The notes below the pieces were generated by a model. That model was not told the origin of the DNA. It was given only the letters and a program-made list of their open reading frames with translations, and searched no databases. A stretch of 63,993 nt of DNA, the filler included, from Reticulomyxa filosa (taxonomy: Eukaryota; Protista; Foraminifera): NCBI GenBank assembly GCA_000512085.1. It is 17 parts of 17 records of this genome, joined end to end, with 100 filler letters (N's around TTAATTAATTAA, not from the genome) between each part and the next. Parts side by side here need not be neighbours in the genome. Positions count along the whole stretch, not along the records: positions 2,362 to 6,296 come from ASPP01011741.1; 16 more parts are not named here. The stretch is one strand, 5' to 3'. How positions within the stretch are numbered: position 1 is the stretch's first letter; each line of letters starts with the position of its first letter. Position numbers and translations under genes: made by a program. Positions 1 to 59,295 of this stretch are shown here, in pieces.

Positions 1-768
1 GAACACGAGCAAAATAAAATCAGTGCTGTAAGTTTAAAAAAACAGTATATCTCTTTCATTTCAAATTGGAAACTTTTCATATGCTGAGGTTCCTAAATTT
101 TTATGGAAGTGAGTGGGACATTGAAAACGTTGAGTGCATCTGAACAAGAAGTGGTGGAGAAAGAGTATCACATTTCCAAAACATACTTACATACCATCTT
201 TATTTGGTGACAATTTTCTTGTCTTTGCACAACAAAAGGATATTTCTATTGTGAAAAAATTTGTGGAACAAGCCGAAAAAGAGCACAAATTGGGATAATA
301 ATTAATTACGGCGTTGAAGAGCAATAAGATCGACTGAGGTCAAAGCAATGCTATGTGAACGAAACAAAGGGGCAGAAGCAATATTTTCACGAACAGTGAT
401 TTTAATGGATGCAACCGGTTCCATGGGTCACTTGTTGCAAAAAGCCAAAAATGCAGTGACCACTATGTTCGAACGCATCACTATCATTTTGAAAGGTCAT
501 GGATTTACCTCCCAATAGCTTTGAAATGTAATTTATGGTATATTGGAATTACAACTCACCAGCAGACATGCTTCTGCAAACATCTCCGTGGGAATCAAAG
601 CCCGAGAATTTACGTACGGATGGGGAAATGAAGCAATCGAAGTGGGACTGGCCCATATTAACAAAGAACACGAAAAAAGCAAATATTTCACAGGTTATTT
701 TGATTGGAGATGTGAATACACTTGTTGATGCTTATAGAACAAAATTTTTCAAGTCTTATACTTTGTGA
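1..768 (+). pseudogene. Decayed vWA-domain gene fragment
   Basis: Frame through 405 reads RTVILMDATGSMGHLLQKAKNAVTTMFERI (MIDAS-like DxTGS). The downstream motifs YNS..LLQTSPWESKPENLR, WGNEAIEVGL and VILIGD are split over different frames (ORFs 535-768 and 543-728), with stops. Confidence 0.65.
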
Positions 769-1218: not shown

Positions 1219-1563
1219 CTGGAAACCATTTTAATTGTATTTTGCTACAACATGAATTTTACCTTTACAAAATATAATGTATTATTGCTTAATGTGAAAA
1301 AATTTCATGCAAATGCTACATTACCTCTTAAATTGATTAAAGTTAGTCTAATAATTATTTAATCTACATATTTCATCTTGATGTTAAGTAAACGAAATGA
1401 CTAAAAGACGTCAAAAAATCTAAACAATATATGATATGCTTCACAACAAGACAATCCAAAACAAATTAAAAAAATGTATTAATTATTTTATTATGCGTGA
1501 TGTCCACCAGAAAAAAAAGGGCCGTCTTTCACATAAGGAGGAAAAAACTGGGGGAAAAAAGAC

Positions 1564-2261
1564 ATGTCCGCTTTCATTGAAAAAGATAAAAATGCACAAT
1601 ATTTTTTAGCTTGGTTGGATAACACCAAAGTGAAATCGTTTGTCAAGCAAATCCAAGCGGTGGAATCTTCAGTGGAAGAATGGTTACTGAAGGACAAATG
1701 GGAATTCCACAAGTCAGTTGACAATTATCAAACGTATAAAGGCGAGTCAGTGAACTTTGAAATAAGAGTGTTTAAAATATGGGACGAAACGGTGCGTATG
1801 TACGCATGGAAAGTGGACGCGATAATTCCAGAAAAAAATGCGCAATCAGTGATCGATTACTACACCGAGCCAAAAAAAAGAATGGAAATCGAGACGGACA
1901 CGATAGAGAGTATGCGCAACATCAACGTGTTTTCCACGCAAGCTTTGAACACAAACGCCAGTAAAGACAAGGCCACCGCAAAAGCGATAGACGTAAGCGA
2001 TGCGGAATGCCGTATAACCGTGGTGAAATTAAAAGGTATCGACATTGGAAAGGTCGGGTTGATATCGCCACGAATGTATGTGAATTTAGGCAAGCTCTCG
2101 TATAATCCCAAGGTGAAGCAGCACACCCTTGTGAGTACGTACTTAGAGTTATCGGAACTGCAGCAATTTCTCAAAGACACTCGATGTGTCCATAAAGTGG
2201 CTGAGTCGATTGCTGACAATATTTCTACGTTTAGTGTCCCCCTTTTTTTTTTTTTTTTTTT
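1564..2261 (+). CDS. START/SRPBCC-like lipid-binding domain protein (3' truncated)
   Basis: Open frame of about 225 codons. Pattern 'WEFHK...AWKVDAII..NAQSVIDYYTEPKKRMEIE...LISPRMYVNL' resembles START-domain motifs (vs.RdfV). Confidence 0.55.
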
Positions 2262-2361: not shown

Positions 2362-2395
<34 letters not shown>

Positions 2396-2396
2396 G

Positions 2397-4976
2397 GATT
2401 CGAAATGGAAACTACTTCAACAATTGTGTCGACAATATCTACGTAAAACGCAAGAGGAGCATGAAACTAAACAGCAGATTGACGACGACGACGATGACGA
2501 CGACGACGACGATGAAGAAGAGCCCTTGCGTTCGTACCGTTTGTCCATGTCTGCAAATGCGTTGAAACAGTGTCGACAAGACCATTACAATAATGATAAT
2601 GATGATAATGATGATAATGACAATGGGGTTAGCATAAAGTGCAAGATGAGCGAAAAGGAGATCCTCGAAATGCAAATGGAAATGAAAAGCAGCGACGTGG
2701 ACGTCAATCCCAAGCACGTGTTGGACTGGGATGTGTATTTGAAGGAGCTGTGGCTGCGAGCGCATCAAATGAACGAGTCATTTCAAATGGAAATGAAAGA
2801 GATCTTTAAGCCATGCAAAGGGTGTCGTTGGGAAGAGGGGCCAGTTAAAACGTTGGAAAGCTATCGTCGTAAAGCGCAAATGGATTACGACTGTGAAGTC
2901 TACCCTTTCTCCGCGCACGTGCTCGACATTGTACGTTGTCGCGTCACGTTCGATACGCCCAAGCATTTGGTGGACGGTTTGAAGCACTTTGTGCATGTGC
3001 TTTGTTCGGCGGAATATCAACAGCGATTTCGCATTGTACGTATAAAAAACGCATTTGCAGCAGTCAATCCTTTGCTCTCAACTACTCGCACTCGTACATT
3101 GTACAAGGACATTAAAGTCAATGTTCAATTTCGCAAGATCTGCGCGTATAACCGTAGCCAAGTGGCCATGGTGACCGAAGTCCAATTCACACTGCACGCC
3201 ATTGCGCAGCAGAGACAAGTGCAACAACACTCGCTGTTTCGCTTCCTTCGATCCGAAATGCTTCACTTGAAGTCGTCCAAAGATATCCAACACTGGTTCG
3301 ATTTCCAATTGCAAAGCGCCTGTTTCGAGTCTAAAGACATTGCCAATTTGATGTATCATTGTCCTCGCCAGTTTGCATTGTCGCCCTTGGTCCAACACTT
3401 TCATAGCGCCGGCGGAGATACCTTCCTTTCGCAAATGGCCAACAATGGACAAGTCCAATTTCCTCACGCACAAACGCTCTTGCAAAGTGGCTCTTTCATC
3501 CCTTTTCATGTCGTCCAAACACAGCTCGTTCAAGACAATCACAAAGGGACCTTTCCGCTAATGCACGCCTTGTGGAAGCAACCGTCCATTGATTGCATCA
3601 AGCTGTTCATCCCTTCCTATTCAGAGCATGCCAAAATGGTTTGGTACGCTGCGAACCGAGTTTTGTTTACAAAAAAAATAAATAATAAAATAAAATTGAA
3701 AAGTGAACAGAGAGAAGGAAATTTTTAAATTTTTTTTAAAAAATTTAAAAAAAAAAAAAATTAAAAAAAAAAAGCCCAAATTCCACGAATGCACACACAC
3801 AAATATGGCCAATTTTTTATTGAATTAAGGAAAACGCCTCATGTATCCACTTTGGAGTTCGCAATGTTCATGTGGAAACATCTTTGATTTTGGAGCTGCT
3901 CAAACAAAATATCCAACCTGACAAATGGCAGTCCATTATTGAATCCCACGATTCTGAAGTAAGGATATATGCACTTGCTCTGTTTTTTTAAATACTCCAT
4001 TTTATTTTATTTTTTTTGTCTTCTTCATCCCTTTCTCCCTATTGGATCGTTTGCAACAGCAAGGGTTTTCTCCTTTGATGACTGTCGTTTATTTTCAATC
4101 CACTCTAACTCCTTATGTCATTGAGTCACTCATCCCAGATGATTACAAGCAAAACGAGTTATTTTGGGAACACAGAGCCAATAGAAGATTGGTAATGCTT
4201 TTTTTTTTTTTTTTTTTTCGGCTTTTATGTATATGTATATGCGTGTGTCTAAATTATATATTCACAGACAACTCTACTGTATTGCATTTAATATTTCACC
4301 AGTCTCTTCGAATGTATTGTCCAGATTAAAAGTACTGCATCAGTATATGCCACAAAACTGCTGGGAAAGCTTACTCGTCACTGAGGACGCTGTTAAGTTT
4401 GTGATAACTATTTACTACACATCACAGCACGTTACTTTGAGTCCTTTTTTTCCAGCTCAAATGAAATTATTTCTGACACAGCATGGCAAGACACCATTAA
4501 TGCATGGATTGCTGTGGGGATCAGAAATGGATGACGAAATTATGTCACTGTTAACCCCACAAAACAAAGATTTGGATTTTTGGAGAATGTTGACGCGTGT
4601 TTGTTTTTTGCTAATTTTTTTTTTTGTTTTGTTTTGTTTATTTGTTTTGTATTTGATACAATATTTTTGAACAGGATAGCATCGTTGATCGAGAACAATG
4701 CAACATGTTGCACTTAAGTATTATGAACAAGAAACAAACTGAAAATAATTTGAAGTGCTTGCGCGCAAAAATGCCGAAACAAGTGTGGAACGAATTATTG
4801 CAAATGAAAAATTACACAATTGTATGATCAACAAATTGCATTTTTTCTGCTCATAAAAAAAAGTACATAATTTACCTAACACACTTTTTTTTTAGCTTGC
4901 AGAAACGCCTGTGGAAATTGCCTATCGGCTAAAGAAATCGAACAATGTGCTAGCATTATTGGTTCCGCAAAAATAA
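2397..4976 (+). CDS. RelA/SpoT-like nucleotidyltransferase domain fused to C-terminal ankyrin-like repeats; multi-exon, 5' truncated
   Basis: Motifs in order: GPVKTLESYRRK (2838), LDIVRCRV (2922), RIKNAF, YKDIKVNV (3102), TEVQFTL (3174). Later exons carry ankyrin-like starts GTFPLMHAL, GFSPLMTVV, NSTVLHLIF, HGKTPLMHGL, CNMLHLSI and ETPVEIAY, with stop at 4974-4976. AG acceptor at 2395-2396 is in frame with ORF 2424-3728. Confidence 0.72.
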
Positions 4977-6559
4977 GGTTTATTACGGATCATTGAATTT
5001 AGTTTGTGGCTATGAGAAATATAATGTTGTTACATTTAAGTTTTAATAACCCGGACACAAATAAAGCTTTTTTCGTTTTCAAAAATTTTTATTTTAATTT
5101 TGAAATTACATGAATGTGACCATTTCAAAATTAGGCTTGTTGAAGAAAAACGATAAGCTGAATTCTGTCGTTTTTATTGAGGAAGAGAAGTTTTTTATGT
5201 TCATGAACAAGTCTTGAAAGAACATCACAAACCGATAAAAAAAATCTAAAAACAAAAACGTACCTCAAAATGACACCCAAAACAGGCTTAACAAGTCCAC
5301 AGGCCAAGCCAAGATTAAAAAAAAAATAGAAAAAAATTTGAAGACATCACAACAAACCTGATCGTTTCTCCCTTTTCTTTGCTCAATACTCTTGTGTGCA
5401 TTTGTGTCTCATATGTAAGAAACAAAACAAAAGCTCACCTAAAGCGAGTGGAGCCGTGTTATTCTTCATCCACGAATAATTATATTTGCAAATTGTTCAA
5501 AGATAATTGCAGGCAACTTGAAAACAAAAACCAAAAAGTAACAAAGGATTGCCAGTGCTAAATCCCAATCCCAAACAAAAAAAAACACAAAAAAACAAAA
5601 AATAACATCACTTTAAAAGAAAGAATAAAAATTTAAAAAATATTAGGAAAAAAAATAAACAAAACACTAACACTTAACTAAAATAAATGCATCTCGAAAA
5701 AAAAGGGAGAAGATAAAGTTAATCCAACTACAAAATGTGAGTTAAAAAAACAACCAATTAGCATTTTTAATCTCTTCCTTTTATTTTTGATCAGAAAATT
5801 GGATTAACAATATGATCAAACACGTCACGCACACACAAAGAGCAAAGTCCAGCGTTTTTGGAATTTCATAACTTTGAACAAAAGTAACGCATCAAAGGAT
5901 TGATTGCAAAAAAAAAACTAAGTGTGACCAGCACCACATCTCTACTTTTTCTGGCACACAGAATGAAAAAAAAACAAAAAAGCCAAAAAAAAAAAACAAA
6001 AGCCAAACCAAAAAAATCACTCAAGCAAAAAATGTTATTTTGCGTTTATATTTGTCACCACTACTATTCAACAAATGCACATACGCAAATGCACATATAC
6101 ACAAGTTTGAATAGTCCATAAACTGTCCAAATTTTTTGTGGAAAAAAAAAGTATTACACCATTGCCCGAAGCCTTGGATATAATTTTTAACAGACAATCA
6201 ATAGCATTCTGGTTTCCATTTTGTCAGTTTTTGTTGGTGTTCTTCTCATTTTCTCGTATTTGCAAAGAGGGAAGGAAAAAAAAAAGAAACACAAATNNNN
6301 NNNNNNNNNNNNNNNNNNNNNNNNNNNNNNNNNNNNNNNNTTAATTAATTAANNNNNNNNNNNNNNNNNNNNNNNNNNNNNNNNNNNNNNNNNNNNCTAT
6401 TATATTCGGACTAACAACAAAAACTAAATTAAAAAGGACGCGAGTACACGTTTAATTCCTTTGACCAGAAATTTCCTTGTATCAACATAGTACCTTTTTG
6501 ACCGGTTATATTGTCAGCGGACAACAGTAATTCATTTCTGAAAAATAACTTAAAATCCC

Positions 6560-7263
6560 TTAATATGTAAATCTCAAATATGGGATATATCATCAGGAAG
6601 ATAAATTAAATTAGGGGATGATGTCAATGCTAAATATGCAAAATTCTTGTCAGATGGAAATAGAATTATATTTTTTTCATATAATGGCAATGGTACAATC
6701 AAATTGTGGGATTTGTTATCTAATAAACAAATTCAAATATTTGAAGTATATGAAGGTTTTATACATATAATAAATATTTCACCAGATGATTCTAAATTTG
6801 TATCGTATTCACTGGATAATACAATTTTGGTATGGGATATATCAACTTTTTTCATATAAAGCAAGTGGAAATGCAACTGGAGTAATATTTTCTCCAGATG
6901 GTATTACAATTGCGATTTGTTTAAATAAACAATTGAATTATGGGATGTATTAACTGGAAAACAAATCCAAATATTAAATGGGCATTCTGATCGTATATGT
7001 GGAATAAAATATTTATTGGATGATTCTAAAATTATTTCATATTCAAATGACAAAACGATTCGAATATGAGATACTTCTTCAGGAAAACAAATTCAGTGTT
7101 AGAAGGACATAATAATTACATCAATTGCATTCACGTATCTCCTGATGGTTCAAAACTAGTGTCATGTTCTGACAATAAAACAATTCGATTATGGGGTAGT
7201 GACAACGGTAAAATTGTTGATTTAACTGAGACCAGTATGGTGGATTATATAAGCTTTATGTGA
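6560..7263 (+). pseudogene. WD40-repeat pseudogene
   Basis: Repeats such as ISPDDSKFVSYSLDNTILVWD and GHNNYINCIHVSPDGSKLVSCSDNKTIRLW are interrupted by frameshifts and stops (e.g. IRI*D where W is expected). Confidence 0.8.
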
Positions 7264-8121
7264 AAATAACTTAGCACTTTGTTTTATAAAAACAATGCTA
7301 TTGTATTCCACTTTATTTTTAATGACAAGATTATTTTGAAAAATACAGAATACTATAAATTTGCAATTTCAATTTAACACTATCATATCTTCTAACTTTG
7401 TCACTTTATTCGATTGTAAAGTATATTTAAATCATGCAAATTTTAATAGTTTACGCTGTTTTACTTTTGAACGTTTGCATGACCATGTAGGAATAGTGAG
7501 ACGACTAACTGTAATACGAAAGGAACTTAGTTCCAAAAAGCAACTTCAGTAAAAAGAAATTAAACTATCAAAAATAATTTCAACACAAGAAAGGAAAACA
7601 AGTAAGGAAAAACACAAAAGTGAGTTGCGTTGTGAAGAGGGTTTTAACCCACCGGGGTCCCACCGTTCCATTAGTATTTGAGATTGTATAATAGGGACTG
7701 CCCTACAACCATCATTATATTTCAAATATGTGTGTAAGCATATTTTTGATCAATTGACAGTATTTCGCTTCTGCAAAGTAATGCAAATTTGTTCCCCTTC
7801 AAAAGATTTGTGAAAACTTTTTTCAGGGTTGACAAGATTTTCTTTGGTATGTCATTTCGTATTTTTAAATTCATGTTTGCATGGGCACTCTAAATCTAGC
7901 AAATTGATAACTTTTGCAAACAAATTCATTATGTGTGAAAAGTAATTTATTTAAATTTAAGTATATATTACCGCTTTTGATGAAATTCTAAAGTGAAAAA
8001 TAAATGGCTTTAAAACATTATGTAAACCACAGACTGTTGTGTATTCTGCATTTTCAAACTACTTCTTCTATTCATTATTTTGCGACTTTATGATTCATTT
8101 GTGAAAAAAATCAACTCAATA

Positions 8122-8477
8122 CAGTAGGTTGAATAAAAAACTGAACACCTAAAACGCCACCTTATGAAGATTATTGATTTTCTCCATGAAAAACAGATAT
8201 TTAATCCTAATTTTTTTAAAAATATCCACAAATGTTGTAGTTTTTAAATGTGGAATTGATTTTTGAATAACTTTTTTTTGAGGTGTATAAAATTTTAAAA
8301 GCAACACAAAAAAAAAAATTATAGGTCCACTGAAAAAAAAATTTTAAATGTAAAAAGTACAACATTTGTAGATATTTTTTTAAAAAAATTAGGATTAAAT
8401 GTCTGTTTTTCATGGAGAAAATCAATAATCTTCATAAGGTGGCATTTTAGGTGTTCAGTTTTTTATTCAACCTACTG
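8122..8477. mobile_element. MITE (356 bp) with ~125-bp terminal inverted repeats and TA target-site duplication, Tc1/mariner-type ends
   Basis: TA|CAGTAGGTTGAATAAAAAACTGAACACC...GGTGTTCAGTTTTTTATTCAACCTACTG|TA; arms nearly identical; no credible coding frame. Confidence 0.92.
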
Positions 8478-8639
8478 TATTTCCAAAAAGATTTTTTCTT
8501 CACATTGTCTTATATTTAAAAAAATTACTAAATAATAATAAGAAAATTATGTTTCTTTTTTTTTCTCACAAAGACGTTTTTTTCAAAAGGGCACATTTTT
8601 TCATCCCTTTTTTTTTTAAAAAAAAAAATTACTATAAGA

Positions 8640-9731
8640 ATGAAGAGGATACCAACTAGCAGGATGAGGAAATCCGTTAAAAAATTGAAGGATTTGCCCA
8701 TTCGAATGTTTGATCCTCAATGTGTGCGACACAAACATGAAATCATTATTTGTGGATGTTTTGAAGAAAGAGCTTGTTATTCTTATAATATACTCAAAGA
8801 TGAATACAAGTTAATCTGTGAGTATCCAAGTAATGTTATCTTATCTGGCCACTGTGTGGTAAAATTGGAAGACGGTAACGACAGCAAAGACAGCAATGAG
8901 GTGGCTGTGTTGTCTTTTGGTGGAGATAAGGAGATGAAAAGACATACATTAATAATGAAATATGTAAGTGTTTGGAGTGATGACAATGACAATGACAATG
9001 AAATGAATAAATCAAAGAAATCAGAGAAATTAAACAATTGCAATGAATGGGTCCCTTTCACAGACAATCACAATAATCCAATTCAAATTGCAAGACCAAA
9101 CGAAGATTTTAAAGGAGCACGCGCATTGATTGGTGGAAGCAACAATAATTTGTTATTTATCGTTTATTATCATAAGAATATTAGCGTGTTTAATTTAAAG
9201 ACATTCCAATATATTAAACATGACCGTTTGCCAATTCAAACTGGGCTATCATTTCCATGCTTTGTATTGCATCAAAAACATGGACAAGAAATGACTCAAA
9301 AAAATGAAAAACAAAATCAAACAAACAATGAAATGTTATTGTTTTTTACCAAATCAGCATTGAGAATTGAATATGATGAAGATAAAAACACTTTTCAATT
9401 TCATCAACTAGCTGTTGATATATATGTTGCACAGGTCTGTAGATATGGATATGCGTGTGTCAATGATGTTCTCTGGGTATTTGGTGGATATTGTTGGATT
9501 GCTGGTAAAAGATACGTTTCCAGGATCATATTCAAGTATTACATTCGCGAAAACAGATGGGAAATGTTTCGAAATGCTATACCAGCTCAGATTTTTGAAT
9601 ATGCCACAGTGTTGAGTGAAGACAGAACATATGTGCATTTGATTGGAGGAAGATTTAAATTTGATGAAAATGTGATAAGACATATCACATTGAACATGGA
9701 GGAATGTATTGGTAAAGAAGAAGAAGAAGAA
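8640..9731 (+). CDS. Kelch-like beta-propeller protein, lineage-expanded family (3' truncated)
   Basis: QCVRHKHEIIICG, GHCVVK, LSFGG, ARALIGGSNNNLLFI, WVFGG, YVHLIGG; clear paralog of the gene at 13877. Confidence 0.85.
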
Positions 9732-13200: not shown

Positions 13201-13876
13201 CTATTTGCAAAATAATACAAATGGACACATTGATCACTTAACTTAGAAGAGCAGACTTTTTTTGTATTACATTTAGTCCTTCAAAGTAGTTGTTTTAACA
13301 ATAATAACTTTTAAAATTTCTCTTATCAATATTAGAAACGAAAAATGAAAATGACCAGAACATGGAGAAATATATATATAAAGTTTTGAAGTCAATCCAA
13401 TTTTCATATGGAATTGACAATTGTACACCATCAAGTCAAATATTTCCCTTCTTTTTAAACAAAAAAAAAAAGAAATAAAAAATTAAAACACATTTTGAAA
13501 GATACATTCAACAATATCAGAGTTAAGTCAACATTTCAATTGCGGGTAATTAATAAGAACAGATGTGACAACGTTGTATCATTTAACATGAATGGAGTGT
13601 AAATGATGTCAAGTTGCGCAATTAAACAAAACTGGTGAATGATATGAATGTTAGTTGCATGACGAAAAATAGCAATACTTGATTCACCTTTACACATCCA
13701 CTTATGTGAATGTATCTTTGCATTGTCGGCGATTCAAAGTTGTGTTCTTGCATTTTTAATGGAATTATTTTTTAAAAACAAGTGTATTATTTAGTGAAGA
13801 TATTAGAAAGAAGAGTTACAGTAAACGTGGTGTGTTAACGAAAAAAAAACCTAAGTTGATTTTCGATAGTGATAAC

Positions 13877-16101
13877 ATGGATACTATCTCTCCCTTTCAA
13901 ACTTTAGAACCTTTGCCTATCTCACTTTATCAAAGTCAATGTGTAATACATAAGCACGAGATACTCATTTGTGGAGGTTTATACACAACGGACTGCTTTT
14001 CGTACCATACAATCAAAAATGAATACAGGTATATCTGTTCTTACCCAAAAAAAGTAATATTAATTGGACATTGCGTGGTAAAACGTGTGGACACCAATAA
14101 TCCAAATAAAATTACATTGTTATCATTTGGTGGAGTATATAAACATACATTGATAATGAATTACGTGAGCGTTTGGGATGATGTTGATGATGAAAAAGAG
14201 AGTAAGATCCCAAATGACTGTAATAAATGGCTTCCTTTTACTAACAAACGAAACGTACCAATTTGTATTGGAAGAAAAGATGGTAATTATGAAGGAGTTC
14301 GTGCATTAATTGGTGGATATAAAAATAATTTGTTGTTTATTACTTATCGTCCAAAAAACATTGATGTGTTTGATTTAAATACATTACGATATGTCAATCA
14401 TGATGAGCAGCCAGTCGAAAGTGTTATATGTTATCATTGCCTTGTATTAAAACCAAACAATAATGTGTCAAAAAAGAAATCTGAAATGATATTATTTTCT
14501 AGAAGCACTGGACTAGCTATTGATTATGATGAAACGAACAACACATTTCGATATTATCAAATACGCGTTTGTAAATCTATTTTCTCATTCCATTATTATG
14601 CATATGTACTTGTTAATGATAACATCTTGTTTTTTGGCGGAGATGACAATGGATATTCAATTGAAAGTGTATTCAAATATTCAATCAAAGAAAATAAATG
14701 GGTGCATTTTGAACGTACTTTGCCAATTCCATTATCTGGGAGTGTTGGGATATTGAGCGAAGATAACACGTATGTGCATATTCTTGGAGGACGTAGTGGA
14801 GCCACTCAAGTGCAAGAGCATATGAAGACAAGTGTGAGTGAATGGATGAAAAAAGAGACAGGAATCGAGAGAGAACGGATTTTGGAGGAGGCAATAGAAA
14901 TAGAAAAAGAAGGAGTTGTAAAAGAAAGACGAAGAATAGAAAGAGATAAAGAGAAAAAATTTCAAGAAAGACAAAAAAAGTTAGGTGGTATGTATTTTTT
15001 GAAATAGAAAAAAAAAAAAATAAAAAATAAAAATAAAAATAAATAAATAAACATAGAGACGAATGAAAATTGAAAAGATCCTAAATTATTGGACTAGATC
15101 ATTGTTTATCAAAATTGGATGGATTGATGATTTCAACATTATTGTTATACAATATATCATGGTATGTTATGCAAGTGATATTTGATCGCAAACTTCATTT
15201 AAAAAAAATAAACACAAAATAGATGGCATATTTTCGACAATTAAGAATATTACAAAAACAAATTGATCATACAATGAGCGCAAAATTTTCCCCAGACGCT
15301 ACAAAAATTGTTTTTTCCTGTGCAGATAGGACCATTTGCATATGGGATGAAAAATTGGAAATGTTCCAGATATTTTCGGGGCATTTGGACAGAGTAAATA
15401 ACGCACAATTTTCACCAAAAGGAGGTATAATTGTATCATGCTCAGAAGATAAAAGTATTCGATTATGGGACGTAAATACTACAAACGAATTAAACAAACT
15501 TGAAGGACATTCAAGTGGTGTAACAAGTGTTCAATTTTCACCTGATGGTACTACCATTGTATCAGGCTCATTGGATACTACCATTCGATTGTGGGATGTG
15601 AACTCAGCATGTGAAATAAAAAGATTGTGTGGACACGCGAGTGAAGTCAATGATGTACAGTTTTCGCCAAATGGTCAAAATATAGCATCTTCTTCAACAG
15701 ATAAAACAGTTGGAATATGGGATGTGAAATCGGGCCAACGAATACACGAATTAAAAGGACACTCAGATATCGTACGAAAAATACAGTTTGCTCCAAATGG
15801 TGATATTCTTATTTCAAGCTCACGGGATCATAGCATTCGAATATGGAATGTGATATCGGGAGAACAACTGAAACAAATTTCGGGTGAAGCAAATATTTTG
15901 AAATTCCTACCACATAGTCAAACGATTATTTTGTATTCCGGTGAAAACTCAATGACATTATTGGATACAAAGCTTGATATAGAAATACAGAGATTGCATG
16001 GGCATTACCGTAACATACAAGGAATGGATATTTCCTTTGATGGCAATACTATTGTGTCTTCTTCAAACGATACAACAATTCGACTTTGGGTAAAGATCTG
16101 A
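13877..16101 (+). CDS. Kelch-like propeller + charged helix + GWIDDFN linker + WD40 propeller, probably one 3-exon gene
   Basis: Kelch ORF to about 14990; exon about 15059-15161 RMKIEKILNYWTRSLFIKIGWIDDFNIIVIQYIM; phase-0 GT..AG intron 15162-15222; WD40 exon 15223-16101 with GH...WD repeats. Confidence 0.78.
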
Positions 16102-16446
16102 TACATTGCAAATTTTTACTGTTATTTCATATCTACCAAGATTTTTTTTTATTGCGATATTTCAAACAAAAAAGAAAAGAGTTTAAATTATTATAATTTT
16201 TGAGTTTCAAAACATTATTATTCCTTGAAGTATTGTGAGCTCTTTCAAAATTTGAGCGTTAGAGTTTTTTTCTATAAAAAACTTTATTAAAAAATGAACC
16301 TAATATCATAACGAATAAAAAGTGAATAGTGGATACTTTAAGTCTATTCAAGTGAAATAACTTCTATCAAGTAATCATACTTGTCTGAATATATTTTTTT
16401 TAAAGAAAGTGGTGATGTAATTTGTTTGCACAGGCTTTGTGAAGGA

Positions 16447-17626
16447 ATGAATACAAATGACAACAACAAAACTCAAATCCATCTGCAAAACTTGGTGGGT
16501 ATTGTATTATGCTTTGATTTTTTTGTTTTAAACGTTTGTTTCAAATGCTCCTACAAAACATAGACAAAAAAAGAAATAAAAATGATTGTGGAAAATTGGC
16601 TCCGTTTATTGTCCATTAATTTGGGTTGGATCGATGATTTTAACAAGATAATTGAGCGATATGTTTAGTATTGTTTTTTAAACAAAGATTGTTTATGATC
16701 TAATGGATTTTTAAACCTTGAATAACTGCACAAAATAACCTTATTTAATACAGACCAAATATATCAAACAAATAAAAGTATTTCAAATACTTTCGAAGCC
16801 AATAAATTGTGTAAAATTTTCACCAGATGGAACTAAGATTGCTTCATCTTTTAGTGATTTTACAGTTGTGTGGGATATAGAATCTGGAAAAGGTATGCAA
16901 ATGTTGAAAGGGCCACAATTAGTGAATAATATACAATTTTCATTTGATGGAAAATTGGTTCTATCATCTCCCGATAATAATACAATTCGATTATGGGACA
17001 TCGGAAAAGATGTAAAAACTTTAACAGGACATTTACTTGGTGTGACAAAGGCCCAATTTTCATCAAATAATTGTATGATTGTTTCTTCTTCTTCTGATGA
17101 AACTATTCGAATATGGGATGTAAAAACTGGAAGAGAAATTAAACAATTAATAGGACATACAAAGTGTATAAGTGATGTGCAATTTTCTTATGATTGTCAA
17201 TTTATTGTATCATCATCTTACGACAAAACAATTGCAATATGGAATGTCAAAACAGGTAAAAAAATAAAAGAATTAATTGGACATTCTGATAATGTTATCA
17301 AAGCAGAATTTTCTAAAGATGGAAAAATAATTACATCTTGTTCAAGTGATAAAACAATTCGAATATGGGATGTAAAATCAGGACGAGAAATCAAAAAATT
17401 AGAAGTATTTTCTCGTTGGATTACCGATTTTAAATATTTGGTAGATGGTCAAAATATTATCTTTTGCACAAATGACAAAACTATGCAATTATGGGATGTA
17501 AAAGCTGGTGTTGAAATACAAGCATTGGAAGGGCATTCTTCAGCTGTAACAGGATTTGATATTTCACCAAATGGTAATATGATTGCATCATCTTCTTATG
17601 ATAAGACAATCAGATTGTGGGGATAA
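16447..17626 (+). CDS. WD40-repeat protein with N-terminal GWIDDFN motif (3 exons)
   Basis: Exon 2 reads EIKMIVENWLRLLSINLGWIDDFNKIIERY; last exon 16754-17626 is open with about 7 WD repeats. Confidence 0.88.
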
Positions 17627-20547
17627 TGTTTGCAATTGTTTTTTTGTTTTTTGTGTGTCCTTGCCACAATTGATAAAAAATGAAAACTAGTTTGTGTATC
17701 ATCATTCCGTAAATTTTCATATCTCTTATCGTACTTGATCGTTATTCTAAATTTGTCAATTCTCCTTCTGATTGAACATTCCACAACATTTCAACTTTTC
17801 ACCGTCACTTTAATACCTTTCCTGTTCAATATTCAATTGTTGTATTAATGCAATAATACAACTTCAACATCACTGTTAAGCTTATTCAGAGTATTAAGAT
17901 CACATTTATATTGAAAATGGAGCTGCAGAGTATTGATTCTCAGCAAAGCCAAACTATTGACACTTTGGTTGTAGGAAAAGACCTTAAAATAAGATTTTGT
18001 GTCGGTAGAACAACATAAGGTAGTGGTTTGTTTGTCTTGTTCAGGTATTAGGATGATTGTCAATGCTGAAATTAATTCAAATTCACTGGCATTTTTTTTT
18101 ACAAAATAGCAGTTCTTTCGGCTACAATTAGCCACTACAACAGTACCTTTTTGAAATATCTTTTTAGATAATCTATTCATTGAATCAGATATTGTTAAGT
18201 TTTTAATACGTGTTCTGAAAACTATTAAAAAAGTGTAAATTTTATATGGTTTTTCTTTTTTTATAAACTTGAGATAAAGTAAATATTACCCAAAAGAAAT
18301 TTCAAAAGAAAATTATTTGTTTAACGACTAATTTTTGTGATCGATTGCACATTTCTCCATTTTTTGTGACTGGCAATGCAGTAAAAGACATCGTCTATAA
18401 CAAGCCAGAGAAATGCAAGATATCAATATTTACACTCTTGTTTGAAATTTTGAACATTTTTCAATTAAAAACCCATCTAACTCACTAGTGTTTGATTAAA
18501 GTCACCATTTTTTCAATATGTTTGCACGCTAATAAAAAAAAGCTGATTTTTGTCCATCAAATACTTGACAATTTGATTTCACCCAAAGTAAATGTTTTTG
18601 AAGTCTTATCTGTTTGGTATTAATGGTTACTGTGTTATTCTTGTGTAATAAAATTACAATAAAAAGTATATAAGAACCTGAAATTTCGGTTTGTCCTTCG
18701 TTTTCGCTTTTTTTGCCTTCGTCTGGATTGAATTGAGCTTTGTAGTGTCCCTTTTTTCAATCTATTCAAAAGCCTTGCAGCCCATTATATTTAATAATTT
18801 ATTATATACGTATATAGTAATTTATATTTTGCATGACAAACTAATAATTACTACAACATAAACAATAGAAAGTGTAAGCTATTCATTCAAAGAAAGCAAT
18901 AAAAAAAAGATTATAGAAAATAAAGTTAAATAAGAGCAATTAAATGAAGAATTCTATTGAAGCGCATATGAAGAATATAAACTAAAAATAGATAATTACT
19001 AATATCACCAAAGTGGAAGTATAAATTTAAACACGTATTACCAAATTAGATTGATATACAAAAACATTTATTTTACTATAAATCACAATAACAGCAGCTA
19101 AGATAACGATGCAAAATTTGCAATTGAATTCGAACTAGTTGTCCATGTTTCATCATCAAAATAATAACGTCAGTTTTCCAATATCGTGTAAATCACAAAT
19201 ATCAAACACTTTTGGACGCGAACAATGACTTGATCCAACAGACCTTCTTGCGAAACAACATGACACACAAGCAAATAATATATAATGAATATACTCGCAT
19301 CGACGACGAACAAATCTTTATAGTTTAGTATAAATAATTAATTGTTGTTGTTTTTAAAAATGCTGAAATGTTAATTGAAATCTCAGTAGTATAACTTAAT
19401 GTAAATCCAGCACCGATTTGTATGATGAATTTTTTTTATCTTCAGCACACGTAATGTTAAAATAAAATTTGATCCAAAACTCGCTGGAAAAATATTTGAA
19501 AGCGTGTGCTATCCACAAATATGTTACCATTGTGTTCTTATATTTCAAATGATATGCGTTCTTTTAAGCATGTTCCAATCATTGTTAATGCTTGAAACAA
19601 GGTACTTGAAATCTTGGACTTTGTTTTTAGTTTACAAAGTTTCTCCATGTTAAAAAACTGGTATTGTACACAAAGAAGCTTTCGGTCGTTGTCTTTGTAT
19701 TGAAATATCAGCATTTATATTCACTAAGGTACAAAAAAAGGGGAACGCTGTTGACTTTAACACTATTTCAAATCTTACTTTGTTGTTACAGTTTTTCAAA
19801 TGTTTCCAAAATTGACAATTTATGACACATTAGAAGCTTTTTGTTGACGTAAAAAATATTTATAAAGACTTTTTTTGTTTGAGTCAAAAATAAAGATTTC
19901 TTTGATTAAATCTTATTCTCGCTTTATCTTATTTTTTTTCTTTGTCTTTTTTGTTTGAACAGCAGATCCAAATATAAGGATTTATTTCCAATTATCTTTA
20001 TTGATTGTTGATCTTTGAAAGCTTCTAAGGAAAACAAAAACATAAGTAAACTTCATGAACGGATGGAGCGATGCATTGCATAAAAGTATTACAAAAAATT
20101 TGCTTTTGAACAAATATGAAAGTGAAGGTAAGGAAAAAACTCAAAAGAATGTATTTGCTGAAATCGTTAAGCAAACAAAAATTTAGTATAGCATCCAAAT
20201 ACAAATTATGCAGAATTGTAACTACTTTTTGTTTTATTGGCTTTCATTAGCATGCAAAATTGCTGCGACTGCCACAATATTAATATCTATAGTATCTCTA
20301 TACTCGCAGTCGCATATACGTAAAATAAAACTAAGAAAATATTGAAAAAACTCCTCTTCAGCAAGCTAACAGTATTTTCGTTGACGCTTTCTACACTCGA
20401 ATATCACACTCACCAATACGCATTAGTTTTGTTTTTAACTTAGCCAAGAGGCACAAATTATTTTTTGCAGGATACGTAAAAGTAGACTATTTTTTTTAAG
20501 TCTCAGAAACGTTTTTTTATTCCTTGGTGTTGCGGATACAACAAACA

Positions 20548-21422
20548 ATGGCAGACAAAAGCAATGAATACAAGATTGTAGTGTTGGGTGGCGGTGGTGT
20601 CGGCAAAAGTGCGTTGACTATTCGACTAGTCACGGACAACTTCTTGGACGAATACGACCCAACAATCGAAGACAGCTACCGCAAACAAGTGTCAATTGAT
20701 GACAAACCTGCGTTGTTGGATATTTTGGACACTGCCGGCCAAGAAGAGTTTTCATCAATGCAAGACCAATGGATGAGAGAGGGAAAAGGGTTTCTGTTGG
20801 TGTACAACATCACCTCAAAACAAACTTTTGAAGAAATCGAAATGTTGCGTGAGAAAATTGTCAGAGCCAAAGATACTGATAAAGTCCCAATGTTAAGTAT
20901 CTTTTGTAACTCCTCTTTGTCTTTTGCTGCGTAGTGCCCTTCTCTGGCTCATTGTCATACAAGCGTCATAATTCATTTGCAACATCCCTTTTTTTTTGAA
21001 CTTTTTTGGACGTATACAAAACAGCGTAATTGCCGGCAACAAATGCGACTTAGCTCAAAACCGACAAGTTCAAATTAAGGAAGGACAAGGACTTGGTATG
21101 TAACAATTTGCATCACTTGCTCCTTTTTTTTGTTATCTTCATATTCTTTGATTTTTATGTTTTTAGATTTGTTTGAAAATAAAAGGGGTATTTTGGAAGA
21201 ATAATATGTCATATTTATTGACAAAAACCAAATATTGATGATTGAATAGCTCAAAAATGGGGTGAATACTGCGCTTTCTTTGAAACAAGTGCCAAAGACA
21301 AAATCAACAATGAAGAAGTATTTTTTGAAGTAGTTCGAAAAATTCGGTTGACCGAAGAAGGAAATGGAGGAACAAAACAAAAACAAAAACAAGTCAAAGT
21401 ATTCAATTGTGAAATTTTGTGA
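20548..21422 (+). CDS. ras: Ras-family small GTPase (3 exons)
   Basis: GGGGVGKS, effector loop [16 protein letters not shown]; exon 2 GNKCDL; exon 3 FETSAK; C-terminal CaaX CEIL* at 21408-21422. Confidence 0.96.
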
Positions 21423-24589: not shown

Positions 24590-24771
24590 NNNNNNNNNNN
24601 NNNNNNNNNNNNNNNNNNNNNNNNNNNNNNNNNTTAATTAATTAANNNNNNNNNNNNNNNNNNNNNNNNNNNNNNNNNNNNNNNNNNNNAAAAAAAAAAA
24701 AGGCAGAAATGCCAATCCTTTTTTAAAATATTTTCTCAAAAAAAAAAAAAAAAAAAAAAAAAAGAGATAGA

Positions 24772-25732
24772 CTACATTATAAACTCGGCAAAGGTTTTGT
24801 CACAACTATAAAAATTATCGTCAACGGCATAGTCTCGTGGATGAAGGGCAAACTTGAGCAAAAGAGGGAGATAATCGGCATAATGTTTGGCCTGATAAGG
24901 GGCCCGATTAGCCGCGGTTGTAACACCTTGGGAGGGTTTCCAGTTGTCAATCTTGGCTTTGAAGGTGCGAAAATGGTCGACTCCATGAAAGGCGCCCATC
25001 AAACCGCCGACGACACAGCAATTGCTATTGGCAGCGCCGCCAAAGGAAAGAGTATCTTCGATTGCCTGTTGAAAGGAGTTGGCAATGTACAAATGATAAA
25101 AGGCCAGTTGAAGACTAATTTTGAGATGTGTGGGGACGAGTTTGGAGTGTGCAGTTTTCAGTTTGGCTCTATCTTTGCTCCACACTTTGGAGCGAGTAGA
25201 GCGCGGAGAGTTGCTTTCGGAGGACTTTGCAATGGAAATAGCATCGCCAATCCATCGTTCGATCTCGCTGATGGCACGTGTATGTTTCTGCGGGTCATCT
25301 GCAATGCGATGTTGCATTTGCAAGAATTCTTGCGCGAATTTGATGGCATGTCGATGACGACCACATTGGGAAGGAAAGCGAATGAGATATTGAGCCGTCA
25401 AAGCATAAGCCGTGACAGCATAATACACAACATAGCTGGCATGAGTAAGCGAGCTTTCTAAACGAATCAAGTTAAATGTTTTATCCGGTGGCAAACGTAA
25501 AGCATAGACAATCAATGGCATTACACGAACCAAGCTACCATTTGTGGTCACTCCTAATTCGTCCATTTCACTTTGAACATGCTTATTCTCTTGATATGCA
25601 TTTTGTCGAATTTTTTCTACGTCCTCCCCTTTGTCAATGCTACTCATCAATTTACCTTTTTCCAAAGGCTGACTCCGGCTCCAAACTCGATACTCTTGCA
25701 CAATGTACTGCATCGTCAAATGGTGTCTCTTG

Positions 25733-25766
<34 letters not shown>

Positions 25767-26066
25767 CATTAACTTCGATCATTCGCAACAGTCCTCTCGC
25801 CAAACACATGGCCGTCTCCGACGCGTCCGTCGTTTGTCCGCTGCTCATTGTCTGCGCATATCGACAAGTTTTCCCTGTCATCTCCATCGCTTTTTGCACA
25901 ATCTCGTGGTCGGGAGTGCTCTCCGATATCTGCATGTACCGCCGATCGAGTCGCCAATCGCCCCTCCATAGCACAGTCCTTGCGCTCTCGACAACACCAA
26001 TTCTATACTCTTAGTTGAATACTCACTCAATGTCAGCCAAAATGGATTATCTTTCATCTCTTTTTA

Positions 26067-29878: not shown

Positions 29879-32109
29879 TCACTGCAGTCCGAATCCTTGA
29901 GAATATTTAATTGCGAGTGTAAGTTTTTCTTCCATTATCTCTAGCTTCGGGTAAGCAGGCAGCATCAAAGTGTTGAAGCAAGTATGAGCAGTGGGAAGCA
30001 TTTCTCCATCGTAAGGATCAGATCCAACCCGATGGATCACCAATCCTAGTTTCCCCAATCCTCGCAAGGGCGCTCTGTGTGACCCTGTGACAAAAAAGAG
30101 CAATTTTTTTTTGTTTTCTTCATCAAACGACTTGGCCACTCTCCAAAACAAGCGAATCGAAGGATGGTCCGAGTGATATCCACCTTCATATTTCGTTGAG
30201 ACTTCCAAAGCATCGAAATCGAGTACAGTGTTTCCGACAACCAATTTTTCCAACTCTTCGCCCATGAACAATCTAAAGGCATTCTTACCAACGACCATAT
30301 GAAAGCCTTTTGCAAATGGCTCAAATTGTTTAGCAATGCTTTCGTTCAAATACCAATTGACCAACTTGTCAACATAGTTGAGGACATTTTCATTGGTGAC
30401 ATCAATTGACTCTCCATTAGAAATCAGGTCATGTTTTTGAACTTCGCCAAATACTTGGTCTTCGACACAAAAGACCAAGCACAAATCTTTGACATCTCTG
30501 CCGCTTTCTGGCCACTTCATAACTTCTTCCACTGACTTTCCAATGGTAGAATCCATGTCTTTCAACTCATCCAATCCTACTTTTTCGCCACAAAGCTTTT
30601 TGTAAACGACCAAAGGAAAGCGAATGTCAAGCAAGACTCCATTGTAAATGCCCAAGCCAATGATGATACCGAGTAGCCGGAACGTGTTTTCGTCTTCAAA
30701 CGAGTGGCTATTGAACCAATACGTGCACGTGTTTTCATTATAATTGAAACAGCCATACTTGATATCGAACAGCTCTTCAATGATCAGTTGGAAAAACTCC
30801 TTCTTCACACCCCCTTGATCGACAGCCTCTTCGCCCTCAAACACAACTTTCAGTTCTTTGAAAAAGTCGTTGGGACTGTTTGCAATGGTGTGTGTAACAA
30901 TGGCCAGCGTGTCGGGCAGCAAATGAGGTCTTCGCACGCGAATGACAAAATAGGGCTGCGGAATCGGGAAAAATAAGTTGAATCCCATTATCATATTAAG
31001 GTTAAGATTACCATCCAACGCATGCTGTTGTCTCGACAACTGCTGTTCGATTTCAATAACCTCTCGTTTGGCAACCGGATCCAGCAAGAACGGATACATG
31101 CAAAACGCAAATATGTTCCCTCGACCACGACTATTGAGTCCGGCCGTGTTGGTGGTGGTGGTGGTGGCAAACGAGCCCTCGCGCCAACGAATAAAGTCGC
31201 TTCGATAATCGATGAGTCCGCTACGTGTCAATGTCCGATTGTAAAACTCTTTCAACGCCAAGCGGTCTTTGGAACTGGGCAATCGTTGATTGGCACGCCA
31301 AAGATAGTCCATCACCATCACAATACGAAATACGTACATGTCGATTTTTTCTTTCAGTTCCACAAACATGGTAAGACAGTCTTGTAGTCGTTGCAACAGA
31401 AGGCGACGCGAAAATACGTCCCATTGCATGAGCCACTCGACCATGTCTTGCTTCAGATCATCACTTATGCGTGTGATCGAGTCATTCAACAAAGAGGTCA
31501 TTTCGTGATTGAAGGAAGCATTGAGCAGCTCTGGGAACACAATAAGGATAAAGTAATAGCGCAATCGCAACGCTTCTTGTTGGTAATGAACATGACGACC
31601 ACTGTTTTTAACCACGTGCGACATTGCCTTGATAAACGCATTGGACACGCGCGGATCAATATTCAACAGCCGATTATACATCTTTTGCAATGACTCCAAG
31701 TCCACACCTGTACCGGGCAGTAGATGGTACATGTTGCGATTGGTTGGAAACGACCCATTCAACAAACTTGGTGATGAAAATACCATTCGCAACGTCGAAG
31801 ACAGCTTTGCAATGTTGCCACTGCTTAATGCAATGTCACACAAGTACGCAATCGCTCGCTCATCGACATACGTCGGTTTCATGAACAAGTCCAAGTTGCT
31901 CACCTTCGTGATCAAGTTGTCTTCAATCCTCTCCGCCAAAACCAATGTGCAGAAACTGCTTGCACATATCTTGGCCACTCTTTTGTTGCTCTGCTTGTCC
32001 CATGAGACTTCACACGCCTTCCAAATCTTGCTTCCATCGTTCGGGTTCCCTGTGCATTGACCCTGAGAATTGTGGCCAAATATCCACACGTGAATGCCAT
32101 CCGTCACCG
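29879..32109 (-). CDS. HERC-like HECT E3 ubiquitin ligase (RCC1 repeat + HECT), 5' truncated
   Basis: FGHNSQGQC (RCC1), YPFLLDPVAK, LKVVFEGEEAVDQGGVKKEFF, FVTGS, catalytic LPTAHTCFN and a terminal GFGLQ. Confidence 0.95.
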
Positions 32110-32112
32110 CTG

Positions 32113-32148
<36 letters not shown>

Positions 32149-43856: not shown

Positions 43857-45651
43857 TCACACTTGAAATGAACTTTTTGTTTGGGATTTGTTCTGACTAG
43901 TTGTCAAAGTCGGCAGAGTAGTTTCTTTATTTTTTTGATCCGTCTTTAAATTTTCGTCAGCACGTTGTGACACCTTGGATTTGGTGTCAACATTGGCTTT
44001 AGTTTGAAGTTCGCGAAACACTTCATTCAACCCCTCATATTCGACCCACATATCGCTTTCGGTGATAGTCAATCGATGCAAGGCATGATCCATGCGTGTG
44101 GGTCTCATAAACACAGCATAACGAATGTGCGAAGAATAATTTGGACCGGCACGGTGGGGTAACATTGGATGACAACAAATGAAATCTCCAGGTTCGGCCT
44201 CAATTTGTTTGGATGAGCTTTCCCACATGAAAGGAGATTCGTCCATAGATTTGCGAACATTTTCCATGAAAGGCTCTGCCCCACCCATGGACTGAATTGT
44301 CGCAAACATATCAAAATGCTTGCCCGGCCACACTGTGAAATTGCCGACAAAAGTGTTTGACCACGAAGACAGCACAAATCCGCACAATATTGAAAATCCA
44401 CAAATGCCTATTTGATTTGACAGCCGCATTCCGTCAATGTGCCATTCGCCACCAGTCAGCTGTTTCGGAGCCTCTCCGCCATTGGGAATCTCAATGCAAT
44501 TTGTGCTCCAGGGCAATAGCTTCACAATTTTCTCCTGTTCAGTTATTATTATTATTATTATTTTTTTTTTTTTTTTTTAAATTTTCATTGTTTTTTTTTA
44601 AAAAAAAATTGAATGCAATTTCTTAACCCAACAAAGATTGAATCAACGAATACGCATGAGATTGAAAGTACAAATCCAAAATACAAGCTTCGCGACAATC
44701 CCACAAGCCGAACTGTCCTAATCCTTCGCAATGGGCCCCTCTTTCAATCCCACGATTGATGTACTTTAAGGCATTGTTCAGAACGGTCTGATCTACTACA
44801 TTTTTGATGACAACAAAGCCATTGTTATAAAAATCTTGTTTTTCTTTGAAAGTCATTTTTCTGCCTTTCATTGGACTCTCTGATTTTGTCGTCTTGCTCT
44901 TGCTTAGTTCGTCTTCTCTTGTTTGTGATCTTTCATTAATATTCTTGCCAATTTCTTTCATCACCATGGTGGCCCCTTGTTCCAAAAATGGAAAATGGCG
45001 CGCCTTGGTGTTGGCGACTGTGAAATAACAACCTGTCTGTGTCTTGTTGACTCGGTCCATATCCTCGTCACGCAAATCCGTGCTTTGCACTAACCCTTTG
45101 TCATTGACGCATAATTTTTTACCACTTTTCAATCCCTCAAATGCATACCATAACGCCTCCTGTCCTTTCTTCTTCTCATCTCGGTTTATCACTACTCTGA
45201 AGTGAGAAGCCTCGTGGGATGCACTGTCCACACACTGCACTTTCCCAGATTCACTCATACTCAAATATTGATTGTTGTTTGTGTTTTGAATTGTCACCAC
45301 GTTACCACCTTTTTTTCTTTTTTCAAAATAAAAACAAATTCATTAAAAAAAAAAATAATAATAAATTAGATATACGTATATGCATGTATGTACCATGTAT
45401 ACAACTCAACTCAACCCTCTGAATTAGAAAACGTGCATAGGGACCGATCCCACCTTTTGCCATGATATGTCCCGATGGTGCAACATTCACGTTGGCTTGA
45501 GTCTTCATCGATGTAATCACAGTATGGTAGCCGGATGGTGTAATCACGTTGTTTATCATGTTTGTTTCACGTCATTTGTTGACAATATATGGCTTTGTGA
45601 GGTCACTTCGTTTCGATTTCCTTGGGATACTAACATATCCATCCATTTTTC
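43857..45651 (-). CDS. PhyH-family Fe(II)/2-oxoglutarate dioxygenase with N-terminal beta-trefoil (fascin-like) repeats; 5' truncated
   Basis: FYNNGFVVIKNVV, WHIDG (HxD), GNFTVWPGKH, PGDFICCHPMLPHRAGPN..IRYAVF; upstream VTIQNTNNNQYLSMSESGKV..SHFRV-type repeats. Confidence 0.82.
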
Positions 45652-58463: not shown

Positions 58464-58495
<32 letters not shown>

Positions 58496-58521
58496 TGTAT
58501 ATATTGTATCCCTTTGAAATA

Positions 58522-59245: not shown

Positions 59246-59295
<50 letters not shown>

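Follow-up and report, generated by a model that had tools for sequence, protein, structure and literature searches.

The stretch of DNA analysed here (the window; 63,993 nucleotides from the foraminifer Reticulomyxa filosa, assembly GCA_000512085.1) contains a spliced gene in which a domain with the predicted fold of RelA/SpoT homologue (RSH) synthetases is followed by ankyrin-like repeats. The gene lies on a contig of 3935 bases (2362-6296) between two N-TTAATTAATTAA-N spacers; as the window consists of 17 joined contigs, the flanking genes carry no synteny information. Seven exons are set apart by six GT-AG introns of 74-170 bases each (Table 1). The first visible exon encodes, in this order, a helical lead-in with Asp and Asn/Asp tracts, a conserved RQD motif, the synthetase-fold domain, a linker and the first two repeat units, the gap between the end of the domain (3260) and the first repeat (3408) being about 50 residues. 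The preliminary description of this DNA regarded the gene as spliced and nuclear and not as bacterial contamination, on account of both its introns and its Asp tracts. The six introns bear this out, whereas the tracts are no proof: both the tract at 2481-2513 and the Asn/Asp one around 2592 are inserted sequences that the paralogs do not have.

The gene had been taken to begin at 2397, but no start codon is present there. It is 5'-partial, since the contig of a relative extends 1155 letters beyond the last aligned base (2635); furthermore, paralogs carry ~250-400 more N-terminal amino acids than the visible gene. The coding part within the window comprises at least 664 codons, and the full protein is likely to be 900-1000 amino acids long. 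No membrane segment was seen in the predicted protein.

A 2924-letter contig of run X4 covers all seven exons in order and without introns, differing from the window at 142 of 1556 aligned letters (~91% identity); runs X3 and X4 are presumed to be RNA and both stem from one study, and run X1 gave no cover of the gene. The X4 contig bridges the joints 3659/3830, 4598/4675 and 4821/4896 exactly and is in frame across every gap, and the remaining joints are bracketed by letter counts that match the model, except between 4187 and 4308. One spliced contig thus holds the enzyme exon together with the six repeat exons, so that the enzyme and the repeats belong to one gene, as had been proposed, and the ankyrin exons are not part of a separate one. 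Note that record 2 of run X3 (115 letters; window 3630-3859) keeps a part of intron 1 (3783-3829) and 8 letters up to 3659; it represents a copy that is either unspliced or genomic, and the intron of the relative is shorter.

Straight splicing of the window sequence runs into a stop at codon 516 of 664. The exonic letters between 4188 and 4307 number 44 in the window and 46 in the relative, and the paralog P0006 is in frame through the stretch that matches the break in exon 4. Two bases missing in exon 4 are likely an assembly error, a true lesion of the strain being the alternative. Three other readings of the locus were rejected: a splice donor at 3640, as the relative joins at 3659; an intron of 11 or 23 bases within exon 4, as the relative aligns from 4308; and the database model P0012, which runs into intron 1 and omits the repeats.

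The preliminary description counted about six ankyrin-like repeats on separate exons. The six exons stand; the count does not, as there are eight units (39-45 amino acids each, the last one partial), two of which end exon 1, while exons 2-7 encode about one unit apiece. The units are of two alternating types, units 2, 4, 6 and 8 being alike and units 3, 5 and 7 being alike (z of 2.5-4.7 for 7 of 9 within-type pairs). The introns are in phase 0, save the one at the exon-4 break; together with the presence of one unit per exon, this suggests exon duplication. The units do not have the 33-residue period of ankyrin, and because of their longer, alternating period we call them ankyrin-like. With the exons scanned separately, the window copy gave no Pfam Ank match; a profile of the ankyrin stretches of the family scores it at 9.3 bits, which none of 200 shuffles reached. 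The Ank_2 cut-off (27.3 bits) is passed by the colinear paralogs P0063 (35.6), P0024 (29.4) and P0005 (28.6), and a 52-row family profile matches ankyrin proteins of the PDB, including NompC, down to E 1.4e-12, P0063 alone having no PDB match at E<=0.01. At the level of the family, the ankyrin-like nature of the repeats is thus supported.

Table 1. Features of the gene and its contig edge (positions in the window).
Feature	Position	Strand	Evidence or remark
(AAT)10 tract	2364..2393	+	Contig edge; poly-Asn codons or intron end (AAG 2394-2396)
Exon 1, first visible, 421 codons	2397..3659	+	Junction 3659/3830 bridged in runs X3 and X4
RelA/SpoT (RSH) synthetase-fold domain (predicted)	2730..3260	+	AlphaFold, Foldseek, profile alignment, conservation
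Ankyrin-like repeat units 1 and 2	3408..3659	+	Helix pairs in first model, pLDDT 58-70
Exon 2, repeat unit 3 (B type)	3830..3958	+	
Exon 3, repeat unit 4 (A type)	4060..4191	+	
Exon 4, repeat unit 5 (B type)	4268..4391	+	Frame lost in 4268-4307
Exon 5, repeat unit 6 (A type)	4482..4598	+	
Exon 6, repeat unit 7 (B type)	4675..4821	+	GT..AG joints 4598>4675, 4821>4896
Exon 7, partial capping repeat and TAA stop (4974-4976)	4896..4976	+	

Motifs, predicted fold and family

The four synthetase motifs on which the gene had been recognised are found where they were described, in order and in one stop-free frame within one exon (2841-3239): PVKTLESYRRK (2841-2873), LDIVRCR (2922-2942), YKDIKVNV (3102-3125) and EVQ (3177-3185). 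Two further motifs are RIKN (3039-3050) and HSLF (3228-3239). A loose pattern, written after the motifs had been seen, matches one of the 1624 stop-to-stop frames in the window; among 20,000 shuffled versions of the domain it matches 11.

Two AlphaFold models were analysed. The first (345 amino acids, 10 alignment rows) had a predicted local distance difference test (pLDDT) score of 66.7, and the second (198 amino acids, 52 alignment rows) one of 86.6; all listed Foldseek rows (24 of 24 and 22 of 22, respectively) were RSH enzymes. When 48,161 chains were searched by structure, RSH enzymes took ranks 1-9, led by 8vx3 (Z 13.2, root-mean-square deviation (rmsd) 3.4, 161 residues aligned) and followed by RelP/RelQ (13.1-12.2), Rel (11.7), CapRel (11.5) and Tas1 (11.1), the first non-RSH chain having a Z of 9.1. 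In a separate structure search ranks 1-16 were RSH enzymes, and in both searches transferases of the Pol-beta type trail at Z 7-10. The proposed RSH-synthetase fold therefore holds as a prediction, the models having matched the RelA_SpoT nucleotidyltransferase fold. The Z values obtained here do not tell apart enzymes that make ppGpp, enzymes that make ppApp and enzymes that modify tRNA.

The family hidden Markov model of the domain scores the 13 bacterial RSH sequences used below at no more than 4.4 bits, and PF04607 has no match in the window pieces and nine relatives (E<=1 or 10) or in 38 members of the family (E<=1e-5). Look-alikes in the ESM Atlas, which may serve as leads, are unnamed clusters with diatom or ciliate members; PF04607 accounts for 34% of one cluster.

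The family is large, unannotated and unseen by Pfam and NCBIfam. A ten-row profile searched against 1.84 billion representatives matched 1509, 761 and 284 clusters at E 1e-3, 1e-10 and 1e-30, respectively (the best 150 are listed, and weak matches may be ankyrin-only), and the domain was found in 147 collected proteins at >60 bits. Thirty members were looked up; 15 carry an organism name, and all 15 are from foraminifera (7 Reticulomyxa, 4 Nonionella, 3 Bolivina, 1 Elphidium). The closest protein matches are hypothetical proteins of R. filosa (33-45% identity), a species with 16 further records of the family, some of them fragments or >90% alike. Note that NCBI lists the R. filosa members P0010 and P0161 as "Ras guanine nucleotide exchange factor, partial", which is probably a mislabel.

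The usual layout of the family is ankyrin repeats, a Trp-rich region, RQD and the enzyme, often followed by more repeats. Indeed, the upstream consensus of 103 members contains the ankyrin motif and the Trp-rich region; it has no HD motif and does not match a two-sequence HD profile (a weak test). Among the 38 members scanned, which were picked because of their length or their repeats, 27 score above the Ank_2 cut-off (two of them with additional RCC1 repeats) and 10 are without match, and one of the 38 has a coronin-type WD40 region; no PF04607, NACHT, NB-ARC, TIR, HD or hydrolase family was detected (E<=1e-5). The fusion to the WD40 region is P0055 (Nonionella), the RCC1 fusions are P0107 and P0116 (one from Elphidium), and P0019 has two full enzyme domains. 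By tblastn, no relatives were found in plasmids, and phages gave only noise at E 4; pattern scans of metagenome, genome and viral contigs revealed none either, at a sensitivity too low to prove absence.

No published account of the foraminiferal family was found in the literature searched, supplements (e.g., Table S1 of PMC3153485) being outside its scope. Published work is cited in this text from excerpts; that of PMC6881373 makes no mention of ankyrin, divRel or foraminifer, and the relevant text in those of PMC3482391 and PMC7159879 is on bacterial systems.

Active site across the family

The 147 domain rows were aligned and compared with 13 bacterial RSH sequences from public records. A profile-profile alignment of the two sets places all motifs in register (score 31.6, compared with at most 17.7 for 30 column shuffles). 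Residues were counted over 133 rows, as 13 of 146 rows are partial and were dropped and the duplicate P0012 was left out; domain residue numbers count from 2730. In the window copy, the positions in question are occupied by K40, S44, K48, D66, R69, R71, R104-K106-N107, Y125-D127-K129-N131, E150-Q152, H167 and R174, and Pro38 stands where characterised RSH enzymes have the beta-1 Arg.

In RelP, ATP is bound by R78 and R112 (adenine), K80, S84, K88 and R91 (phosphates) and H190 (ribose), whereas D107 and E174 bind Mg and Y151 binds the acceptor (PMC5794853). FaRel2 (R64/R95) and CapRel (R79/R116) stack the donor adenine between two arginines (PMC11782079, PMC9712102). The equivalents of RelP K88 and D107 are kept in all 133 rows of the family, and those of E174 (131), K80 (130), Y151 (123) and H190 (123) in most of them; the counts for S84 (3), R112 (3), R91 (2) and R78 (0) are minimal. 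The presumed Mg-binding pair, D66 and E150, is jointly present in 131 of 133 rows. At the S84 site 127 rows have Arg (R44), and the beta-2 Arg (RelP R112), present in 12 of 13 controls, is found in only three rows, including the window copy (R71). Furthermore, an Arg at D+3 and R-x-K-N are fixed in the family, and the Y-x-S-x-H of the controls is replaced by Y-x-D-x-K-x-N.

All 20 motif residues of the family are present in 101 of 133 rows, at ~30% identity to the window copy. This near-invariance argues for catalysis at the level of the family, with both pockets apparently rebuilt, and the resulting active site breaks the two-arginine rule of characterised RSH enzymes. A Streptomyces RSH-like sequence (L011 401-736) also has an Arg at D+3 and none at +5, its other sites being degenerate.

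The rebuilding could also mean that the fold has been re-used for another reaction, e.g., nucleotidyl transfer to a protein or a small molecule, or with a donor other than ATP. The changes are indeed invariant across the family (R-x-K to P-x-K, Ser to Arg, Gly/Ala at D+3 to Arg, Y-x-S-x-H to Y-x-D-x-K-x-N, E-x-Q-x-R to E-x-Q-x-L), and Pol-beta-type transferases are next in the structure searches. However, just two acidic residues, of the RSH type, align with the bacterial profile, and RSH enzymes are described as having neither the GS/GG motif nor the third acidic residue found in true transferases (PMC11646218). Since K40, K48, Q152, H167 and the G-loop Tyr are likewise characteristic of RSH enzymes, we regard such re-use as rather improbable.

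Two marks of (p)ppGpp synthetases, Y-x-S-x-H and E-x-Q-x-R, are missing. All 12 bacterial controls that cover the sites have the His of Y-x-S-x-H and the Arg of E-x-Q-x-R, and the window copy reads Y-K-D-I-K-V-N and E-V-Q-F-T. We take the Ser/His of Y-x-S-x-H after the G-loop Tyr to have a guanine-reading role. That the gene encodes an ordinary (p)ppGpp synthetase like those of bacteria or plastids, or is a bacterial contaminant, would agree with RelP and RelQ as the best folds and with the 8 of 10 RelP active-site residues kept in the window copy (the equivalents of K80, S84, K88, D107, R112, Y151, E174 and H190). It is nevertheless highly improbable in view of the six spliceosomal introns and the absence of a PF04607 match, of any HD, TGS or ACT domain seen, and of relatives in the (low-sensitivity) searches of plasmids, phages, prokaryote genomes and viral contigs.

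Proposed activity

The retention of the acidic pair together with the replacement of the stacking arginines makes a pyrophosphotransferase-like enzyme likely, but none of the filed small alarmone synthetases (SAS). Our tentative proposal, plausible although short of probable, is that the protein may act as an ATP-dependent pyrophosphotransferase on a free nucleotide, making an alarmone-like signal, probably one other than classical ppGpp, and that it may be placed or switched via its repeats. In this proposal, D66 and E150 would hold Mg2+, and the donor ATP would be held by K40, S44, K48 and H167. The lost arginine sandwich may be replaced by R69 with R71 (in the window copy) or with R44 (in most members). 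Y125 would stack the acceptor base, which the new D-x-K-x-N motif may read, and the acceptor phosphates would be bound by the invariant R104, K106 and K129; binding of this kind would speak for a free nucleotide as the acceptor rather than tRNA. Alarmone makers differ from tRNA modifiers in having a large positive patch where the acceptor binds (PMC11782079). Most speculatively, the repeats on both sides may position or switch the enzyme by binding partner proteins, which would leave foraminifera with a set of sensor-coupled nucleotide-signal enzymes. A complex prediction with the synthetase domain of P0005 (45-270) and the repeats of P0063 had a score of 0.00 with the alignments unused and has no bearing either way.

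Several observations weigh against this proposal. The residue mapping derives from a weak profile alignment (HH probability 21-38%) and not from superposed coordinates, and sequence searches of Pfam, NCBIfam and the PDB give no link of the domain to RSH enzymes. The beta-1 Arg is present in 13 of 13 bacterial controls and in none of the 133 family rows, and the R91 equivalent is all but lost, though the controls vary there too. The window copy is altered at three family residues (R44S, K162R and Y170F) and lies on a long branch; of the 20 motif residues, 10 are lost in P0006 and 7 in P0016, its sister paralogs (clade support 0.91; FastTree with midpoint root, 141 rows). Finally, compared with the relative, the repeat exons (six in all) show 41 differences in 627 aligned letters and exon 1 shows 101 in 929 (unaligned stretches uncounted); as the repeat exons diverge less than exon 1, there is no sign of an arms race, and such divergence does not fit a fast-evolving pathogen sensor.

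The changes in the window copy and its sisters, together with the long branch and the assembled gene being out of frame in exon 4, are what would be expected of a pseudoenzyme or decaying paralog that serves as a nucleotide-binding scaffold or a regulator of active members. The Arg that is lost as R44S is, after all, the residue of 127 of 133 rows. On the other hand, the window copy keeps 17 of the 20 family motif residues and the acidic pair, and its Ser44 and Arg71 together form the bacterial arrangement, which it alone shows among 146 rows. Arg71 is present in the window copy and in both sisters, and R44 is retained by one sister; this fits a gain of R71 before the loss of R44 (three sequences only). 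Over 2637-2969, the ratio of replacement to silent change (pN/pS) against the relative is 0.12 (11 replacement and 21 silent changes; 40 of 106 differences are listed and taken as complete for this interval), no change at S44 is among the listed differences, and the R71 codon has a silent change only. The relative is in frame as well, though purifying selection would suit a scaffold too. We consider a pseudoenzyme unlikely for the window copy, which may either be active, its donor site having been compensated, or belong to a clade that is relaxing toward pseudoenzymes.

It was further considered that the protein could be an effector like the toxic SAS (toxSAS) that, upon detection of an invader by the repeats, pyrophosphorylates the CCA end of tRNA or burns ATP to (p)ppApp, as in CapRel. 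CapRel, Tas1 and the exported SAS 8vx3 rank alongside RelP and RelQ in the structure searches, the family is expanded and its repeat partners are varied. In addition, RelA_SpoT is an effector domain of NOD-like receptors (NLRs) in fungi (see below), and CapRel is gated in cis by its own C-terminal domain (PMC9712102). We nevertheless judge an effector of this kind to be quite unlikely, because NACHT, NB-ARC, TIR and hydrolase families were absent from the 38 members scanned, the repeat exons are not hypervariable relative to the relative, and many basic residues at the acceptor side are invariant.

Beyond the proposed pyrophosphotransferase itself, it is possible, though doubtful, that foraminifera possess a eukaryote-native second-messenger system with a rewired alarmone-synthetase fold, in which sensors coupled to ankyrin, RCC1 or WD40 repeats number in the hundreds, the signal is new with respect to bacteria, and inactive paralogs act as regulators. 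With the same reserve, such a system might be likened to the cGAS-like receptors and OAS of animals. Should a new nucleotide prove to be the product, one of the major groups of marine protists would gain a further pathway of signalling or defence; otherwise the family would represent a re-used fold or pseudoenzymes. With 180-200 amino acids the domain makes the chemistry directly testable, and the window copy, with its lone bacterial Ser/Arg pair, is a useful natural variant, although the single gene matters less than the family.

The window contains further genes on its other contigs. A long open reading frame (ORF) at 29882-32128 (-) has a C-terminal HECT ubiquitin-ligase domain (E 1.5e-96), and an ADP-ribosylglycohydrolase domain (24775-26010 (-), E 4.6e-28) overlaps a 244-codon frame without Pfam match (24727-25458 (+)). 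WD40/Kelch regions span 6397-9731 and 13760-17623 (+), with WD40 ORFs at 15223-16098 and 16739-17623 (+), broken-looking WD40 text at 6605-7263, a Kelch-type ORF at 13760-15004 (+) and a look-alike without Pfam match at 8532-9731 (+). Ordinary eukaryotic genes are represented by a Ras-family GTPase (20500-20931 (+)), a protein kinase (36310-36882 (-)), Pumilio (PUF) repeats (58471-59836 (+)), a MIB_HERC2 domain (48289-48972 (+)) and a PhyH-like piece (43860-44576 (-)). The pieces at 318-768 (+), which read as a frameshifted gene with an ILMDATGSM motif, are presumably from a vWA-domain gene; a 236-amino-acid ORF at 1537-2244 (+) has no significant Pfam match, and a START-like lipid-binding domain is our guess for it.

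Comparison with known systems

Alarmone synthesis beyond bacteria and plastids is a long-standing question. RSH domains are known from nuclear genomes as divRel SAS in Dictyostelium, Aspergillus, Gibberella and diatoms and as plastid RSH1-4, animals keep the hydrolase Mesh1, and only scattered synthetases have been listed for other eukaryotes (PMC3153485). By the excerpted text of the same paper, the divRel and plastid RSH are sporadic synthetase-only genes or long plastid enzymes, with no ankyrin and no large expansion. The long RSH enzymes (Rel/RelA/SpoT and plastid) carry TGS and ACT after the synthetase; in the window gene the repeats continue up to the stop, with no such Pfam match.

The window domain shares its predicted fold with RelQ/SAS1 and RelP/SAS2 (5ded, 5dec, 6fgk, 6ewz) and with the exported SAS of Streptomyces albidoflavus (8vx3), at Z 12-13.6 and an rmsd of 3.1-4.3 A over 150-166 residues (12-20% identity). 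Unlike RelP and RelQ, it has Pro at the R78 site, an invariant Arg at D+3 and Y-x-D-x-K-x-N after the G-loop Tyr. SAS consist of the synthetase alone (~200-250 amino acids), whereas the window gene has ankyrin-like repeats, introns and at least 664 codons. The toxSAS and related effectors CapRel (7ztb, 9erv), Tas1/Apk1 (6ox6) and FaRel2 are alike in fold (Z 11.1-11.8), and by analogy the window enzyme, too, is joined at its C-terminal side to a module with a possible role in sensing and gating. Their partner is a pseudo-zinc finger or Tis1, and that of the window enzyme is the ankyrin-like repeats.

RelA/SpoT domains occur in phage polyvalent proteins (PMC5512222), and in a Foldseek search of a viral library the highest query TM-scores (0.65 and 0.62) belonged to large phage proteins, with rows from Hyperionvirus and Fadolivirus behind. 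With models on both sides, these phage and giant-virus domains are 11-17% identical to the window domain, and as no sequence link to them was found, no donor can be named.

A parallel in architecture is found in fungi, where 14 T-NACHT NLRs carry RelA_SpoT (82% of those with the domain; 10.1101/2024.11.26.625400); RelA_SpoT domains on fungal NLRs are described in 10.1101/2022.03.16.484565 too. The fungal RelA_SpoT-NACHT-repeat NLRs combine, as here, a eukaryotic RSH domain and superstructure repeats in one chain. However, they match PF04607 and have a NACHT switch, whereas the window gene has neither and its repeats follow the enzyme after the short linker; in the foraminiferal family, unlike in fungal NLRs, repeats are also present upstream of the enzyme. 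On the features tested, the foraminiferal domain is set apart from SAS, long RSH enzymes, PF04607 and the fungal RelA_SpoT NLRs alike.

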